A DNA stretch of 64,000 nt from a virus: the IMG/VR virus record IMGVR_UViG_3300036790_000419, positions 84,914-148,913 of that record; one strand, 5' to 3'. The notes under the pieces are model-generated. The model saw nothing but the letters and a program-made list of their open reading frames with translations. It did not search any database and was not told where the DNA came from. A program made the translations under genes and the position numbers. Shown one piece after another: positions 2,865 through 8,518 of the stretch (its first letter is position 1; every line of letters starts with the position of its first letter).

Positions 2865-3142
2865 GTATCCCGTTCGAGGCACTGGTTGAGTACGCGGCCG
2901 GCCTTGCCGAGGAGGACATGGAGGAGGGCCTGGACCAGCTCGCGGCGCGGGCCGGGACCGTGCCCGGGCGGCTGGCCGACGCGATGGTCGCGGCCAGGCT
3001 GGTGCGGCTGAACCCGGCGGAGGTCCGCGCGTCCGTGCACCCGGCGGTCCGCAGGGCGGTGGAGGCCGACCGGGGCGGGGTGGCTAGCGGCGCCGCGGCC
3101 AGCCTCTTTACCCAGCCAGAAATTCCCCTGGATTTAGCTTGA
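2861..3142 (+). CDS. hypothetical protein
   Basis: GC3-rich ORF, GTGA overlap. Confidence 0.6.
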   Translation: MSIPFEALVEYAAGLAEEDMEEGLDQLAARAGTVPGRLADAMVAARLVRLNPAEVRASVHPAVRRAVEADRGGVASGAAASLFTQPEIPLDLA

Positions 3143-3167
3143 CACCAGTCAAGCAGGGTAGTAACGT
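3139..3167 (+). promoter_or_regulatory. housekeeping-sigma promoter upstream of the tRNA array
   Basis: TTGACA-17nt-TAACGT; -35 lies inside palindrome CTTGAC-ACCA-GTCAAG (3138-3153). Confidence 0.75.
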
Positions 3168-3444: not shown

Positions 3445-3517
3445 AGGGACGTAGTTCAGCGGCCAGAACGGCAGCTTCCAACACTGCGCGCCGGGGGTTC
3501 GAGTCCTCCCGTCCCTG
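3445..3517 (+). tRNA. tRNA-Trp(CCA)
   Basis: Cloverleaf; loop TT-CCA-AC. Confidence 0.85.
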
Positions 3518-3815
3518 CGACCGTCAGCAACGGCGAGAGCCCGCGCAGGCGCATGTCAATGCAGCTTGAGAACTCCACAGCGTGAGCATCAGCGGCGGGC
3601 GCCATCCCGTCGCACATGACTGGCAGCCGGGTGCGCTCACACCGTGCCCGGCTGCCGATCAACGCCCGGTTCACGGCATGCCGTGACGATGGGCAAGCAC
3701 CGTGCCGTCCGCCGGCCTCCGGGCTCGCGTTCCACCGTAGGGGTGTGCGGCCTGGCTCCGGCCAGGTGGCGGCGGTACTTGGTGTCAAGAGTTTTTGCAC
3801 GATATGCAAAGCAAT

Positions 3816-3888
3816 GGGGCCTTAGCTCAGCTGGTAGAGCATCTGCTCGGCAGACAGAAGGTCGGGGGTTCGATCCCCCCAGGCTCCA
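3816..3888 (+). tRNA. tRNA-Ala(GGC), C33
   Basis: G3:U70; loop TC-GGC-AG. Confidence 0.85.
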
Positions 3889-3890
3889 CA

Positions 3891-3961
3891 GCGGCGGGTT
3901 GCCGGTTCGAATCCGGTCCGGTCCACGCATGGGCTGGTAGCTCAAATGGACAGAGTGTCGC
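3891..3961 (+). ncRNA. circularly permuted tRNA-like RNA 1
   Basis: Order: GCGGC, variable loop, T-arm (TTCGAAT), acceptor 3' strand, loop, acceptor 5' strand, D-arm, GTCGC. Confidence 0.75.
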
Positions 3962-3965
3962 ATCT

Positions 3966-4038
3966 GGGGACGTAGCTCAGCTGGTAGAGCAGCCGCCTCG
4001 CAAGCGGCGTGTCGCGGGTTCGATTCCCGCCTTCTCCA
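3966..4038 (+). tRNA. tRNA-Ala(CGC)
   Basis: G3:U70; loop CT-CGC-AA. Confidence 0.9.
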
Positions 4039-4194
4039 CTTAGGGCACTACTGCCGCGCGTCGGCCGGCGCAAGGCGAGAGAGGGCAGCTGACCTCTCTG
4101 GTGCCTTACCGTTCACCCGTGCGGTAAAACCGGGGACCAGCGGAGCCGAATGTCCGGGGCACCGGGCTGAGGGTGGGGTAAGCCTCCGCAACAT

Positions 4195-4272
4195 CGGGGT
4201 GTGGCGCAGCTTGGCTAGCGCGCTACGTTCGGGACGTAGAGGTCGTGAGTTCAAATCTCACCACTCCGACCA
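4195..4272 (+). tRNA. tRNA-Pro(CGG)
   Basis: Cloverleaf, encoded CCA. Confidence 0.92.
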
Positions 4273-4332
4273 GGATCTCAATGGCTCAAGTGAGGCGGCA
4301 GTAAAGGGCCACGCCCTGCCGGAGATCCGTAA

Positions 4333-4404
4333 CGGGATGTAGTTCAGTGGAAGAGCGCCTGGTTTGGGACCAGGATGTCGCGGGTTCGAGCCCTGCCATC
4401 CCGA
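4333..4404 (+). tRNA. tRNA-Pro(TGG)
   Basis: Loop TT-TGG-GA. Confidence 0.9.
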
Positions 4405-4406
4405 CT

Positions 4407-4476
4407 GCTGGTCAGAGCCGCGTGGCGTGCGGGCCCTTAGCGGGGCACTCAGGGTTCGAGTCCCTGCCTGGTCAGC
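4407..4476 (+). ncRNA. tRNA-like RNA with truncated anticodon loop
   Basis: Canonical T-arm CAGGG-TTCGAGT-CCCTG, D-like arm, anticodon arm GCCC-TTAGCG-GGGC. Confidence 0.55.
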
Positions 4477-4553
4477 CGCTCCGGTAATAGGGACGCCAGC
4501 AGCGGACGCGCGCTGGCGGTCGGTGAAACCCCGTTGCGAATCCGGAGCACCCT

Positions 4554-4626
4554 GGGGCCTTAGCTCAGATGGCAGAGCGCCCGGTTGAAACCCGGAAGGT
4601 CGGAGTCTCGGAATCTCCAGGTCCCG
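4554..4626 (+). tRNA. tRNA-Phe(GAA), aberrant T-loop
   Basis: Loop TT-GAA-AC; T-loop CTCGGAA lacks TTC. Confidence 0.75.
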
Positions 4627-4640
4627 CGCAGTAACACAAT

Positions 4641-4713
4641 GGGGATGTGGCCGAACGGTTACAGGCACTTGCCTTCCAAGCAAGCTACGCGGGTTCGACC
4701 CCCGTCATCCCCT
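4641..4713 (+). tRNA. tRNA-Gly(TCC)
   Basis: Loop CT-TCC-AA, U73. Confidence 0.9.
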
Positions 4714-4841
4714 CTGGTACGGGCCGGACTCATACTCCGGTTGCGTGCAAGTAACCGGTCCGCGGCTGTCGGGCTGCGGACCGGGAGCGCCTGGGCTGCC
4801 CGGAGGGGCCGACACCCTCTCCGGGGGCACCAGTACTCAAT

Positions 4842-4913
4842 GCGCCGCGAGCATGTACGGCTATGCAGCGGACTCTTAATCCACGGAACGGGGTTCAAGT
4901 CCCTGGCGGCGCA
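4842..4913 (+). tRNA. tRNA-Lys(CTT)
   Basis: Loop CT-CTT-AA. Confidence 0.8.
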
Positions 4914-4957
4914 CTTCACCTGGCTTCGCCGATTTTCGGCAGAGTTCGGTGTTATTC

Positions 4958-5032
4958 GGGCGAGTAGAGCAACCTGGCAGACCCTCCGCTCCCAAAAAGC
5001 GGGATGTGCGGGTTCGAATCCCGCCTCGCCCA
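4958..5032 (+). tRNA. tRNA-Leu(CAA), C33, short variable loop
   Basis: CCGCT-CC-CAA-AA-AGCGG; 5-nt variable region. Confidence 0.75.
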
Positions 5033-5136
5033 CGCCGGCTGGCAAGGCCGTCCTGCGAATCCTTGCCCGGCCTCTCCTGTGGGGAGAGCAAAGGCCGTTA
5101 CAGGAGGGGGAGAAAAGGCCCCTCCCGTCAATTCAG

Positions 5137-5209
5137 TGGGGTATGGCGCAATTGGCAGCGCAGGTGCGTCTGGTGCACAAGGTTCTAGGTTCGAGTCCTG
5201 GTACCCCAG
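5137..5209 (+). tRNA. tRNA-Gln(CTG)
   Basis: U1-A72; loop GT-CTG-GT. Confidence 0.85.
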
Positions 5210-5212
5210 CGA

Positions 5213-5285
5213 GCTGGAGAATGCGGGTTCGAATCCTGCCCGGCGAGAGAGATCTCGCCGGTGGCTTAATCGGCAAAGCGCCAGC
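5213..5285 (+). ncRNA. circularly permuted tRNA-like RNA 2
   Basis: GCTGG, AGAAT, T-arm GCGGG-TTCGAAT-CCTGC, 9-bp acceptor helix capped by GAGA, D-arm GCTT/AAGC, CCAGC. Confidence 0.8.
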
Positions 5286-5321
5286 AACCCCGGGCACGGA
5301 CGGTATCCCGGCCCGGGGCCC

Positions 5322-5395
5322 GCCCTTGTAGCTCATCTGGCAAGAGCGCCCGCCCCGTAAGCGGAAGGTCCCGCGTTCGACTCGCGGCAAGGGCT
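5322..5395 (+). tRNA. tRNA-Thr(CGT), C33
   Basis: Loop CC-CGT-AA. Confidence 0.85.
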
Positions 5396-5506
5396 CGTAG
5401 TGTCCCGCCGAAGGCGTCACAGGCCCTCATGCCGGCTCCGTTCCAGGTGCCGTGCGGGGTTCGAGTTCTGCTCGTTTCTCCCTCGATCGCGCGTCGCGAT
5501 CATTAT

Positions 5507-5580
5507 GCCCGGATAGCTCAGACGGCGAGAGCGTATCCCCGGTACGGATGAGGCCCCGAGTTCGATTCTCGGTCCGGGCT
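5507..5580 (+). tRNA. tRNA-Thr(GGT), C33
   Basis: Loop CC-GGT-AC. Confidence 0.85.
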
Positions 5581-5591
5581 CGCAAGTTCAC

Positions 5592-5665
5592 GCGGATGTA
5601 GCTCAGTTGGTTAGAGCGTGACGTTGCCAACGTCAAGGTCGCCGGTTCGAGTCCGGTTATCCGCT
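5592..5665 (+). tRNA. tRNA-Gly(GCC)
   Basis: Loop TT-GCC-AA. Confidence 0.92.
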
Positions 5666-5666
5666 C

Positions 5667-5749
5667 GGGTGAGTGGCGTAATGGCAGCCGCGCACGGTTC
5701 AGGCCCGTGTGTCCGCAAGGACGTGAGGGTTCAAGTCCCTCCTCGCCTA
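5667..5749 (+). tRNA. tRNA-Leu(CAG)
   Basis: Long variable arm; loop TT-CAG-GC. Confidence 0.9.
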
Positions 5750-5859
5750 CTTCGAGGTTGTCCACCGTGGCCGCGGGCCGCTGCGCCTGCCGTGCGAGAG
5801 CACGGGTTCCAGGACGGCGGTTAGTTTCCCTGCTAGCGGGAGCGAACGGTGACCTACAC

Positions 5860-5943
5860 GGACGCGTGGCTCAGTGGCTACAGCAGCGCCCTGCTAAGGC
5901 GTACAGGGGTAACCCTGCGGAGGTTCGAGTCCTCCCGCGTCCG
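5860..5943 (+). tRNA. tRNA-Ser(GCT)
   Basis: Long variable arm; G73. Confidence 0.9.
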
Positions 5944-6028
5944 CTTCTGCGCCGGATACCAGCCGAGTCCGTCAGGTGGTGACGCAGGCGCAGTGCCCGT
6001 GGGGGACGGCAACCCGCGACGGGCGCCC

Positions 6029-6116
6029 GGAAGCGTAAGTCGAGCCGGCCTACCGACAGCGGTCCCGAAAACCGTGAGGGGTAACTCCCGTGTGGGTTCG
6101 AGTCCCACCGCTTCCT
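6029..6116 (+). tRNA. tRNA-Ser(CGA), C33
   Basis: Long variable arm; loop CC-CGA-AA. Confidence 0.8.
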
Positions 6117-6283
6117 CCGCACATGATTGAGGCGGCACCCACGGGCCGCTTGCGGGTACCGCCTCAATGTGTAATCAGCCAGGCTGGTGATCCAGTCCAG
6201 AAGGAAGGAACCACGTGCCTTTACGAGCAGCCTAGTTTACTGCTCGCGTTCGCAAGCATACGCACAGTCACAGTGATTGTCGA

Positions 6284-6360
6284 GGGCGGGTAGCTCAGCA
6301 GGTTGGAGCACTTCCCTGATAAGGAAGAGGCCGCTGGTTCGATCCCAGCCTCGCCCACCA
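6284..6360 (+). tRNA. tRNA-Ile(GAT)
   Basis: Cloverleaf, encoded CCA. Confidence 0.92.
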
Positions 6361-6361
6361 C

Positions 6362-6436
6362 GGCGGTATAGCTCAGCCGGTGAGAGCGCCCCGCTCATAA
6401 CGGGAGAGGCCGGGGGTTCGAGCCCCTCTACCGCTA
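6362..6436 (+). tRNA. tRNA-Met(CAT) (elongator Met or Ile2)
   Basis: Loop CT-CAT-AA. Confidence 0.85.
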
Positions 6437-6437
6437 C

Positions 6438-6511
6438 GGGCCGCTAGCTCAACTGCGCAGAGCGGCTGACCTTTAATCAGCGGGTTCGGGGTTCGAGTCC
6501 CCGGCGGCCCA
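6438..6511 (+). tRNA. tRNA-Lys(TTT), C33
   Basis: Loop CC-TTT-AA; D-loop lacks GG. Confidence 0.8.
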
Positions 6512-6519
6512 CTAGCCTG

Positions 6520-6675
6520 GTGCGCGTGAGGAACCTCGCGCTCCGGGCAGCTGAGCGCCTGCACGTCATCTTCGACGCCGTCCCGGTTTACGAGGACGAG
6601 CGGTGGTACAGGTACGGAGACTGGGGCTGCCGGGCGTCCAACTGGGTGCGCCGGCAGCGGAACAAGCGCCGGTAG
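6520..6675 (+). CDS. 51-aa basic protein inside the tRNA array
   Basis: VRVRNLALRAAERLHVIFDAVPVYEDERWYRYGDWGC...KRR; GC3-rich; stop lies inside the next tRNA. Confidence 0.5.
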   Translation: MRVRNLALRAAERLHVIFDAVPVYEDERWYRYGDWGCRASNWVRRQRNKRR

Positions 6676-6742
6676 CTCAGTCGGACAGAGCAGGCGGCTT
6701 CTAACCGCCAGGCCGCGGGTTCGAGCCCCGCCTGGCGCACCA
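6666..6742 (+). tRNA. tRNA-Arg(TCT)
   Basis: Loop CT-TCT-AA; encoded CCA. Confidence 0.9.
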
Positions 6743-6745
6743 CAC

Positions 6746-6818
6746 GGTCCTGTCGTCTAGCGGCCCAGGATGCCTGATTCTCGATCAGGTCGCGCGAGTT
6801 CGAATCTCGCCAGGACCA
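6746..6818 (+). tRNA. tRNA-Glu(CTC)
   Basis: Loop TT-CTC-GA. Confidence 0.9.
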
Positions 6819-6912
6819 CGCAGAGCCTGCTACGCGGGAGACGGCCATTGCCAAAGCAGGTACTCTGAGGTCCGCGCCGGGAGCTGGCTGAAATCCGCTC
6901 GGCAGGACGCAA

Positions 6913-6986
6913 GCCCCTCTCGACTAGCGGTCCAGGTCGCCTGCCTTTCAAGCAGGATGACACCGGTTCGAATCCGGTGGGGGGAA
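6913..6986 (+). tRNA. tRNA-Glu(TTC)
   Basis: Loop CT-TTC-AA. Confidence 0.85.
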
Positions 6987-7017
6987 CGAGGGCCTCCGGG
7001 GTAACCTGGGGGCGCGA

Positions 7018-7095
7018 CGCGGAGTAGGGGAGTTCGGTTGTCCCCGCGGCGCTTTCATAACGCCGAGATCGCGGGTCCGAATCCCGCCTCCGCCA
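7018..7095 (+). tRNA. initiator-like tRNA (CAT) with 9-nt anticodon loop
   Basis: C1:C72 mismatch; CGGCG-CTTTCATAA-CGCCG. Confidence 0.7.
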
Positions 7096-7186
7096 CGAGG
7101 CCCGGCACTGGCGGCCGGCGAAAGCCCCGGGGAATACGTGGCTGGCCCTGCTGGATAAGGGCTAAACAGCCGGGGGCCTCAGTCGA

Positions 7187-7259
7187 TCCGGCGTAGCTCA
7201 ATCGGCAGAGCAGCGTCCCGTTAAGGCGAGGGTTCCCAGTTCGAGTCTGGGCGCCGGAG
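7187..7259 (+). tRNA. tRNA-Asn(GTT), C33
   Basis: Loop CC-GTT-AA. Confidence 0.85.
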
Positions 7260-7364
7260 CGCGTCAGTCTGGGATACGAGGGGCAGCAGCCCTGCCGCGG
7301 CCCGCGCGGCGGTCGCCGAAGCGGGACGAGTGCCGGGGCTCCCCAGTCAGCCGCCGGCACACAT

Positions 7365-7440
7365 GGTCTTGTAGGGGAGCCTGGCCGTCCCCGCCGCCCC
7401 GTCAAGGCGAAGATCGCGGGTTCGAATCCCGCCAGGACCG
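7365..7440 (+). tRNA. tRNA-Asp(GTC), C33
   Basis: Loop CC-GTC-AA; G73. Confidence 0.85.
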
Positions 7441-7464
7441 CTTTCTCACCCGGGGCCGGGGCGT

Positions 7465-7599
7465 TTAGACACCGGAGCGCTTGCGCCGCTCGCCCAGCTC
7501 GGTCCGCCCGAGCCGGTACAGGGCGCGGTAGCCGCCGAGCCTCAGCCCGATCCAGATGCCGGAGCCGAAGGCGATGACCAGGAGGATGAAAATGCCCAC
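7465..7599 (-). CDS. 44-aa single-TM peptide antisense to the tRNA array
   Basis: MGIFILLVIAFGSGIWIGLRLGGYRALYRLGRTELGERRKRSGV; GC3-rich. Confidence 0.6.
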   Translation of the reverse strand: MGIFILLVIAFGSGIWIGLRLGGYRALYRLGRTELGERRKRSGV

Positions 7600-7641
7600 G
7601 TGATTAAACGGTACCTGGTTCTTTACCAGTGTCTAGGCACT

Positions 7642-7716
7642 GCCCCTGTAGCTCAACGGGAGAGCGCCGTCTCGACAAGGCGGAGGGAGGTGGTCCGACA
7701 CCACCTAGGGGCACCA
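7642..7716 (+). tRNA. tRNA-Val(GAC), C33
   Basis: Loop TC-GAC-AA; encoded CCA. Confidence 0.8.
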
Positions 7717-7717
7717 T

Positions 7718-7791
7718 GCACTAGTAGCTCAGCGGACAAGAGCAGCGGCCTACGGAGCCGCGTGGCGGGGGTTCGAGTCCCTCCTAGTGCA
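7718..7791 (+). tRNA. tRNA-Arg(ACG)
   Basis: Loop CT-ACG-GA. Confidence 0.9.
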
Positions 7792-7802
7792 CGCGAGTAC
7801 AA

Positions 7803-7874
7803 GGGCGCATAGCTCAGCGGAAGAGCGCTCGGTTCACACCCGAGAGGCCGGCGGTTCGATCCCTTCTGCGCCCA
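7803..7874 (+). tRNA. tRNA-Val(CAC)
   Basis: Loop TT-CAC-AC. Confidence 0.9.
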
Positions 7875-7875
7875 C

Positions 7876-7950
7876 GGTCGGTATAGCTCAACGGCAGAGC
7901 GCTGGACTGTGGCTCCAGACATACGAGTTCGATTCTCGTTACCAACCCCA
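7876..7950 (+). tRNA. tRNA-His(GTG)
   Basis: G-1/C73; encoded CCA. Confidence 0.9.
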
Positions 7951-7951
7951 T

Positions 7952-8035
7952 GGCGGAGTGACCCGAGATGGCAAGGGGGCCGGCTGTAAACCGGCTGCGC
8001 GAGCATGGCAGGTTCGAGCCCTGCGTCCGTCACCA
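7952..8035 (+). tRNA. tRNA-Tyr(GTA)
   Basis: Long variable arm; encoded CCA. Confidence 0.9.
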
Positions 8036-8036
8036 A

Positions 8037-8110
8037 GGTCTCATAGCTCAGTGGAACAGAGCACCCGCCTCCGGAGCGGGGGGCCGGCGGTTCGAGTCCG
8101 TCTGAGACCA
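8037..8110 (+). tRNA. tRNA-Arg(CCG)
   Basis: Loop CT-CCG-GA. Confidence 0.9.
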
Positions 8111-8198
8111 CGACTGAGTTCACCGCCGTGACCTGGCAGCGGGTAGCGGTGGGCCAGTAAAGCGGGGCGTGCTGCCGGCTACGCCTGCCCCGTCCAAT

Positions 8199-8274
8199 GG
8201 CGGTATGGCCGAGTGGTACAGGCGCACGCCTGCAAAACGTGCTTACCCGGGTCCGATTCCCGGTGCCGCCTCCA
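8199..8274 (+). tRNA. tRNA-Cys(GCA)
   Basis: U73; encoded CCA. Confidence 0.9.
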
Positions 8275-8275
8275 G

Positions 8276-8348
8276 GACCCTGTAGCTCAGCGGACAGAGC
8301 TGCTTCCCCCTAAGGAGCGAGTCGCTGGTTCGAGTCCAGCCAGGGCCG
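8276..8348 (+). tRNA. tRNA-Arg(CCT), C33
   Basis: Loop CC-CCT-AA. Confidence 0.85.
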
Positions 8349-8481
8349 CCTTCGGTGCTCACGCTGTGGCAGCCTGGAGACGGGAGACCGGGTACGGGCT
8401 CGGCTTCGCGGGTCTGAGATCGTTTCCGGTCTCCCGTCACACCAGGGTACATGCACATCACTGCGTTACGCTGGCCCTATT

Positions 8482-8518
8482 ACTCCCTGTTGTCCTCTTG
8501 AGGCTGACAGGGGTTTTT
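8482..8518 (+). terminator. intrinsic terminator closing the tRNA operon
   Basis: CCCTGTTG..CCTC/GAGG..TGACAGGG hairpin plus T-run. Confidence 0.7.

Follow-up and report, generated by a model that had tools for sequence, protein, structure and literature searches.

Two genes for tRNA-like RNAs with permuted arm order are embedded in the tRNA array of an uncultured phage from soil. They lie at positions 3891-3961 (copy 1) and 5213-5285 (copy 2) of the window, the 64-kb stretch of DNA analyzed here, which corresponds to bases 84914-148913 of a 148.9-kb IMG/VR virus genome rated 98% complete. We read both as genes for stand-alone heads of YrlA-type Y RNAs, devoid of the handle, whose tRNA-shaped core would act without Ro60, and assign this reading a probability of about 0.6. 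YrlA is a tRNA-mimicking Y RNA bound by Ro60/Rsr and found in bacteria and mycobacteriophages (Chen et al. 2014, PMC4201824), the structure of which has been described by Wang et al. 2018 (10.1101/312249). Comparison with related genomes and known RNA families shows the two elements to belong to a conserved family of predicted tRNA-shaped genes of the YrlA-head type, embedded in the array and accompanied by neither a Ro handle nor a Ro60 gene.

Two permuted cloverleafs in a tRNA array

The array comprises 33 tRNA genes on the plus strand (3445-8350, ARAGORN), and both elements are located inside it and co-oriented with the tRNAs. From 5' to 3', each element consists of the 3' strand of the anticodon stem, the variable loop, the T arm, an acceptor helix closed by a loop, the D arm and the 5' strand of the anticodon stem. 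The anticodon loop is absent in both copies, leaving the anticodon stem open-ended. Shared components are 5-nt closing strands, a 5-nt variable loop, a 5-bp T stem with a UUCGAAU loop, two linker bases starting with U8 and a D arm of 4 bp with GG in its loop. The tRNA tertiary nucleotides U8, A14, D-loop GG (G18G19) and the UUCGAAU-type T-loop are thus all present. The acceptor helix of copy 1 consists of 7 bp plus the pair A73:U(-1), giving 8 bp closed by CGCA, while that of copy 2 is 9 bp long. The two elements are laid out as follows, each being backed by the sequence, the minimum free energy (MFE) fold, ARAGORN on the rotated sequence, the YrlA model, the family covariance model R1 described below and orthologues.

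3891..3961, plus strand: copy 1, permuted tRNA-like RNA, 71 nt
3891-3895, plus strand: copy 1, anticodon-stem 3' strand
3896-3900, plus strand: copy 1, variable loop
3901-3917, plus strand: copy 1, T arm with loop UUCGAAU
3918-3924, plus strand: copy 1, acceptor 3' strand, with A73 at 3925
3926-3929, plus strand: copy 1, CGCA loop, followed by U(-1) at 3930, which pairs with A73
3931-3937, plus strand: copy 1, acceptor 5' strand
3938-3939, plus strand: copy 1, U8A9
3940-3956, plus strand: copy 1, D arm with GG in the loop
3957-3961, plus strand: copy 1, anticodon-stem 5' strand
5213..5285, plus strand: copy 2, permuted tRNA-like RNA, 73 nt
5213-5217, plus strand: copy 2, anticodon-stem 3' strand
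5218-5222, plus strand: copy 2, variable loop
5223-5239, plus strand: copy 2, T arm
5240-5248 / 5253-5261, plus strand: copy 2, 9-bp acceptor helix, with GAGA cap at 5249-5252
5262-5263, plus strand: copy 2, UG linker
5264-5279, plus strand: copy 2, D arm, with G26 at 5280
5281-5285, plus strand: copy 2, anticodon-stem 5' strand

The unconstrained MFE structure of each copy (RNAfold) is exactly the permuted cloverleaf, and the folding energy of copy 2 is unusual (z = -3.1). Sequence and fold bear out the coordinates, arm order and pairings of the initial annotation, and its description of copy 2 as having a GAGA-capped 9-bp acceptor helix is accurate. The same applies to the alanyl-tRNA synthetase (AlaRS) identity elements it noted in copy 1 (G1-C72, G2-C71, G3:U70 and A73) and to the location of this copy between tRNA-Ala(GGC) and tRNA-Ala(CGC). 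Its expectation that standard tRNA scans would miss both elements was also correct: neither ARAGORN nor the Infernal/Rfam tRNA model (RF00005) calls the unrotated copies. Once the sequences are rotated at the acceptor loop and supplied with a generic 7-nt loop, the check proposed there, ARAGORN calls both copies tRNA.

The permuted cloverleafs are real and not due to chance. A strict pattern scan of the window returned 2 such structures, whereas 30 shuffles gave 0; a relaxed scan was too noisy and was not used. The accidental pairing of two unrelated adjacent tRNA halves is a more relevant null than shuffling. Among 54,572 ordered pairs of halves from different tRNAs (237 array tRNAs), 12 matched perfectly in both acceptor (7/7) and anticodon stem (5/5).

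A conserved family under selection for structure

Relatives with syntenic tRNA arrays were reached via a 677-aa neighboring protein and the portal protein. Family members were identified with R1, a single-sequence covariance model built from one clean element, together with our own parser. R1 matches overlapping an ARAGORN tRNA were discarded, most in-array matches being junctions of two adjacent real tRNAs, an artefact likewise described by Chen et al. 2014 (PMC4201824). Elements with acceptor-loop arms of 40-76 nt were split by cmsearch and were parsed by our own script instead. A plain MAFFT alignment misaligned the acceptor stems and was replaced by an R1-guided one.

The family so defined is represented in more than 10 related genomes of uncultured actinophages, each with 1-4 copies, its members usually occupying a tRNA slot 2-3 nt after a tRNA. 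Copy 1 scores 38-47 bits and copy 2 56.4 bits with R1. Positional orthologues of copy 1 are found directly after tRNA-Ala(GGC) in loci L004, L001 and L005 of related genomes, and copy 2 has orthologues in L005 and L001, in each case immediately behind tRNA-Gln(CUG). Other members follow Ala(CGC), Pro(CGG) or Leu(GAG), or lie 2.4-2.5 kb past the array. More distant relatives also encode members (L086, with two in tandem, L080, L122 and L099/L100/L102/L103). A blastn search with one 70-nt element against cultured phages gave no match.

Selection on structure, for which the initial annotation had argued from the two copies, is supported by compensatory changes in positional orthologues. When 13 elements were aligned to R1, 95.8% of cells were paired, compared with 73.9% for shuffles and 40-50% for slid partners, and 19 of 22 pairs showed changes on both sides; since elements were selected for their fit to the model and the alignment was itself fitted to it, more weight is given to the orthologue comparison, a cleaner but smaller test. 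Across the four copy-1 positional orthologues, 0 of 76 cells are unpaired, and compensatory changes are seen in both the T stem and the acceptor stem. In the anticodon stem of this group, the 'compensatory' flags reflect a one-base register shift (4-bp versus 5-bp stems) and were not counted. The copy-2 family contributes four compensatory pairs.

Core identity between genomes is 70-85% for the elements and has a median of 74-79% for the real tRNAs of the array. A close parent tRNA was sought for each element and rejected in every case, as no array tRNA exceeds 77% identity to any of them. The elements are therefore not recent pseudogenes and, given a divergence equal to that of tRNAs, are old and constrained like functional tRNAs. 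The Levitt pair is A15:U48 in both window copies, L004, L001 and L002:13243, and G15:C48 in L002:20249, L005:15249, L001:11012, L080, L086 and the element of phage Magritte (see below), with a few exceptions overall. Retention of the tertiary nucleotides and covariation of the Levitt pair point to selection for an L-shaped tRNA fold.

These observations bear on the idea that the elements are slowly decaying, non-functional relics, derived from trimmed tandem tRNA duplications or from a Y RNA that lost its handle and Ro60, which we consider improbable. Arrays do gain, lose and decay tRNA genes, the number and position of elements differ between relatives, and the folding energy of copy 1 is unremarkable. 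Relics would, however, hardly keep orthologue stems perfectly paired via compensatory changes, diverge at the level of functional tRNAs, persist in several copies per genome across many genomes or retain tertiary nucleotides and a covarying Levitt pair, and chance complementarity of unrelated halves amounts to only about 2 in 10,000. A true remnant in the same array, in contrast, has lost pairing: the decayed tRNA-Leu(GAG) at window positions 5397-5506, collinear with the Leu(GAG) gene of relatives in the same slot, no longer forms its acceptor and T stems and serves as the array's own negative control.

A third permuted cloverleaf is found in the same genome outside the window and far from the array (C1:11914-11987, C1 denoting the source genome; L009:2915-2988). 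It shows perfect pairing, an 8-bp acceptor, a GAAU loop and a Glu-like D loop. The element lies just downstream of the palindromic motif TTGACANNAGTCAAG (see below) and about 12 nt past a promoter-like TTGACA...TTATCT site, overlaps the 3' end of an open reading frame (ORF) resembling an extracytoplasmic function (ECF) sigma factor and is followed by about 500 nt without a convincing ORF. With an array element of relative G001 (L002:13394-13468) it shares 85% identity, and no counterpart exists at the syntenic G004 locus, which suggests that elements move.

Variable acceptor tips

The acceptor tips of family members range from tetraloops (CGCA, GAGA, GAAA, UUCG) to structured arms of 41-76 nt. 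As it is the elbow and core that are conserved and the acceptor tip that varies freely, the tRNA body is probably the surface through which the RNAs work. In the copy 1 orthologues L001:9557-9673, L004:13269-13397 and L005:13217-13352, an arm of 54-76 nt replaces the acceptor tetraloop. The tip of this arm carries a conserved arrangement of AGUA, a 3-bp hairpin and GAA, resembling the sarcin-ricin/loop E (bulged-G) motif; it is not found in the long arms of L099, L122 and L004:13850.

One alternative is that the RNAs are opened in the manner of the M. smegmatis YrlA. RNase P would cleave at the acceptor loop and the product, trimmed on its 3' side, would gain CCA, yielding a two-piece, anticodon-less tRNA body that, in the case of copy 1, could be charged with alanine. 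The M. smegmatis YrlA, which has a 7-bp acceptor, is cleaved by RNase P both in vitro and in vivo, and CCA is added to it (PMC4201824); copy 1 offers a 7-bp stem, A73 and the alanine identity pair. In copy 1, however, A73 is paired with U(-1), the helix of copy 2 is continuous over 9 bp, the copy 1 orthologues carry coaxial arms of 54-76 nt, and position 3:70, G:U in the window and L004, is C:G in L001 and L005, that is, in 2 of 4 orthologues. The RNase P site and the alanine identity are thus not conserved in the family, and this route has a low probability. The alanine identity of copy 1 pointed out in the initial annotation is present in the form of G3:U70 and A73, but it is not kept among orthologues and sits at a sealed acceptor end.

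Kinship with YrlA and absence of handle, partner and repair genes

The Rfam YrlA model (RF02553), run at permissive thresholds, matches copy 1 with 30 bits (E 0.0016, model positions 17-92 of 114) and copy 2 with 25.8 bits (model positions 23-85 of 114). Both matches cover the tRNA-like head only and fall below the Rfam gathering score of 69 bits, which is a poor test for phage members: in mycobacteriophage Bxz1, used as a control, the best YrlA match, about 190 nt upstream of an annotated Ro-like gene, reaches only 32.5 bits (positions 23-87). The low scores of the window elements, being in the range of this Ro-linked RNA, do not argue against kinship, and the relationship to YrlA-class Y RNAs drawn in the initial annotation holds.

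A closer link is provided by Microbacterium phage Magritte, the nearest cultured relative (50% identity of the portal protein). R1 matches Magritte OR553905.1 75919-75986 with 46.4 bits. The Magritte element sits on a long basal stem interrupted by internal loops, and about 570 nt downstream of it is the gene for gp118, a TROVE + vWA_Ro60 protein. By the definition of Chen et al. 2014 (PMC4201824), this element qualifies as a full YrlA-type Y RNA. A D-arm sequence beginning GGUAGCUCA is common to the Magritte element and the window family. Further, GGTAGCTCA occurs at positions 6-14 of the Magritte head and of 8 of 17 elements, compared with 14 of 237 tRNAs, an enrichment that argues for common descent of many heads rather than repeated independent permutation. 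A full YrlA match next to a Ro60 gene, which the initial annotation took as the sign of a known system, was not found in the present genome; Magritte has both, and this fixes the family relationship. Magritte also carries, immediately behind tRNA-Arg(UCU) and ahead of the Ro60 gene, a stretch resembling a tRNA 5' half, with acceptor strand and D arm (OR553905.1 76105-76140; L065:5606-5640), which may be part of a second Y-like RNA.

The immediate surroundings of the two window elements are as follows.

3816..3889, plus strand: tRNA-Ala(GGC) (ARAGORN, Rfam), its 3' end 2 nt before copy 1
3966..4039, plus strand: tRNA-Ala(CGC) (ARAGORN, Rfam), beginning 4 nt (AUCU) past copy 1
5137..5210, plus strand: tRNA-Gln(CUG), ending 2-3 nt before copy 2
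5288..5318, plus strand: G+C-rich hairpin between copy 2 and tRNA-Thr(CGU)

Since real tRNAs adjoin copy 1 on both sides (at 2 and 4 nt) and copy 2 on its 5' side, there is no room for a basal stem, in agreement with the earlier remark that the Ro-binding stem is missing. Downstream of copy 2 is a 36-nt spacer holding the hairpin. This hairpin was not listed by the terminator scan and does not appear terminator-like, as no U tract follows it; the fold of 5210-5321 has z = -3.7. The 3' flanks are kept within each orthologue group, with AUCU for copy 1 (also in L004 and L005) and AACC for copy 2. The Ro-binding basal helix with GNCGAAN0-1G was judged absent from the flanks and the YrlA coverage, no separate motif scan having been run. 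The 'ACAGCAA handle' is not present here either.

The initial annotation had suggested looking for Ro60 or RtcB elsewhere in the genome, and neither was found. TROVE is missing from the 98%-complete genome and from 10 relatives, including 7 that are at least 97% complete, Magritte Ro60 as query gave no match in this genome, and DUF2828 was not detected in it. Pfam scans of about 110 ORFs of at least 90 aa revealed no RNA ligase, polynucleotide kinase, CCA-adding enzyme, splicing endonuclease or Ro-like protein; the families found were those of replication, recombination, sigma-factor and structural proteins as well as a few metabolic ones. ARAGORN in transfer-messenger RNA (tmRNA) mode found no tmRNA in the whole genome, the only Rfam match being an 8.3-bit T-loop fragment.

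The missing partner is central to the possibility that the elements are ordinary Y RNAs, their closing stem and tails being bound by a Ro60-type ring or another dedicated protein encoded by the host or by an unrecognized phage gene. The same head is Ro60-linked in Magritte and Bxz1, Rsr is encoded by many actinobacteria (Chen et al. 2014, PMC4201824), most phage ORFs have no Pfam match, and the conserved 3' tails AUCU and AACC could serve as contact points. Known Ro60 binding, however, requires a long basal helix and a conserved 5'-strand motif (10.1101/312249), for which there is no room here, and the 11 clade genomes yielded no TROVE, vWA_Ro60-type or DUF2828 match. We consider this explanation unlikely.

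Missing repair genes and flanking sequence bear in turn on the proposal, also made in the initial annotation, that the elements are precursors religated into tRNAs. They would then be permuted tRNA genes in the algal and archaeal sense, whose transcripts become decoding tRNAs once their ends are joined and the acceptor loop is excised. The permuted tRNA genes of Cyanidioschyzon merolae have the gene order 3' half, linker, 5' half, which is also that of the elements, and several isoacceptors encoded by relatives, such as Gln(UUG) and Thr(UGU), are missing from the window's array. However, no anticodon loop is encoded: the AUCU and AACC flanks do not produce a sensible one, the flanks of copy 1 giving a 6-nt loop without an alanine anticodon and copy 2 being followed by a 36-nt stretch with a hairpin in it. 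The scans of about 110 ORFs gave no RtcB, RNA ligase, kinase or splicing endonuclease, and the long structured acceptor-loop arms of orthologues fit such a pathway poorly. The proposal is not supported, and we regard it as very improbable.

Proposed function of the free heads

We hypothesize that the elements are transcribed together with the 33 tRNAs from an array promoter and released as RNAs of about 75-80 nt by tRNA-processing enzymes. RNase Z-type cleavage after the preceding tRNA, for copy 1 at the 3' end of tRNA-Ala(GGC), would generate the 5' end, and RNase P cleavage at the 5' end of the next tRNA would generate the 3' end, at least for copy 1, which precedes tRNA-Ala(CGC). The resulting RNA would adopt an L-shaped fold with a sealed acceptor end and no anticodon loop to cut. 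Its action would rest on the elbow and core of the tRNA fold and consist, most plausibly, in occupying a host factor that recognizes tRNA bodies, making the RNA a competitor or decoy rather than a decoder. Candidate targets are the effector of host YrlA/Rsr-PNPase complexes or a tRNA-directed defense enzyme; PNPase has been proposed as the effector of host Y-RNA complexes (10.1101/312249). A Ro60-independent competitor or decoy for a tRNA-body factor is plausible and, in our view, the most likely function, although one that we infer entirely. A further step, which we put forward tentatively, is that the YrlA head in general has a Ro60-independent function of its own and that the free heads of this clade are uncleavable, end-protected decoys directed against a host factor.

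Several points weigh against our reading of the elements as stand-alone heads that act without Ro60. The folding energy of copy 1 is ordinary (z = -0.45). The 13-element alignment was model-fitted as described, and paralogues could have inherited covariation from different parent tRNAs. No binding partner of the canonical YrlA head is known (10.1101/312249). The source genome is an uncultured metagenomic record, and the host could provide Ro60 or another partner. Lastly, with acceptor tips varying so widely, not every member need work alike.

The tRNA-like domain of YrlA was described in 2014 (PMC4201824), and a factor contacting its conserved D and T stems was proposed in 2018 (10.1101/312249). 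In the full texts searched on YrlA, permuted phage tRNAs and array tRNA-like decoys, no description of stand-alone, Ro-less heads was found. The present clade keeps the tRNA-like domain under selection and in multiple copies without handle or Ro60, whereas Magritte has a complete Ro60/Y-RNA pair. Together they form a natural separation-of-function series through which the function of the Y-RNA head becomes testable. More generally, tRNA arrays would serve as platforms for the expression and processing of non-decoding tRNA mimics, which escape standard tRNA and Rfam scans.

Array, genome and host

Two further features delimit the array.

3139-3153, plus strand: promoter-like palindromic motif TTGACANNAGTCAAG, upstream of the whole array
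8495-8513, plus strand: terminator-like hairpin with U tract after the last tRNA (terminator scan)

The motif TTGACANNAGTCAAG is found upstream of every tRNA array of the clade, with one or two per related locus, and may be promoter- or operator-like. Elsewhere in the same genome, it occurs at C1:11872, 15146, 30212 (minus strand) and 39321. The hairpin at 8495-8513 is likely the end of the transcription unit holding both elements. No promoter or terminator was predicted near either of them. At window positions 7018-7096, ARAGORN calls a tRNA with anticodon UCA ('SeC'), which scores 43 bits with the Rfam tRNA model. The matching slot is tRNA-Met(CAU) by ARAGORN in most relatives checked (L001, L004, L005, L006 and L007), and the window gene may be an opal-reading tRNA or a miscall.

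A megablast search with the array against cultured phages found nothing close at the DNA level. The genome encodes a full-length homologue of ribosomal protein L7/L12 with both Pfam domains (C1:47635-48015, minus strand; L057:9635-10015), the sole minus-strand gene of its region. As this protein is 52-63% identical to many Actinomycetota proteins, the host is taken to be an actinobacterium, an assignment that reaches the phylum Actinomycetota only. Pfam matches of window ORFs of at least 90 aa also include Globin, FAD_binding_6 and NAD_binding_1 (a flavohemoglobin-like set), a radical SAM protein and DivIVA, all of which are unusual cargo for a phage late region.

Comparison with known tRNA-like systems

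Canonical tRNAs (RF00005) differ from the elements by having free acceptor ends and an anticodon stem-loop. The permuted tRNA genes of C. merolae and some archaea share the order of 3' half, linker and 5' half, but they encode a whole tRNA including the anticodon loop, which the window elements lack. The splicing machinery circularizes their transcripts at a bulge-helix-bulge, and the circle is subsequently opened at the acceptor end; the window elements come with neither a bulge-helix-bulge nor the enzymes, and in the family a stable tetraloop or a long arm forms the acceptor linker. Two-piece tmRNA likewise has a permuted tRNA-like domain, and copy 1 shares G3:U70 with it, but the elements possess no mRNA-like tag frame and no pseudoknots.

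YrlA has the same head permutation, comprising variable region, T arm, a loop-closed acceptor stem of variable length and D arm. It uses the same tRNA tertiary nucleotides and, like the elements, lacks a CCA end and an anticodon loop. Canonical YrlA is further characterized by a gene within about 4 kb of Ro60/Rsr and by TruB/Dus modification in vivo. The elements differ from it in lacking the Ro60-binding basal helix and the 5'-strand motif, in having a plain variable loop of 4-6 nt in place of a variable-arm hairpin and in ending in a clean 4-5-bp closing stem with short tails. They also occupy a tRNA slot, 2-4 nt from real tRNAs, and none of 11 genomes of their clade has a Ro60 gene. The Y RNA of Magritte resembles them in its 5-bp closing stem, 5-nt variable loop, near-identical D arm and 7-bp acceptor capped by a tetraloop, as well as in its location in the tRNA region of the genome. 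It is set apart from the window elements by its long basal stem and the nearby TROVE + vWA_Ro60 gene.

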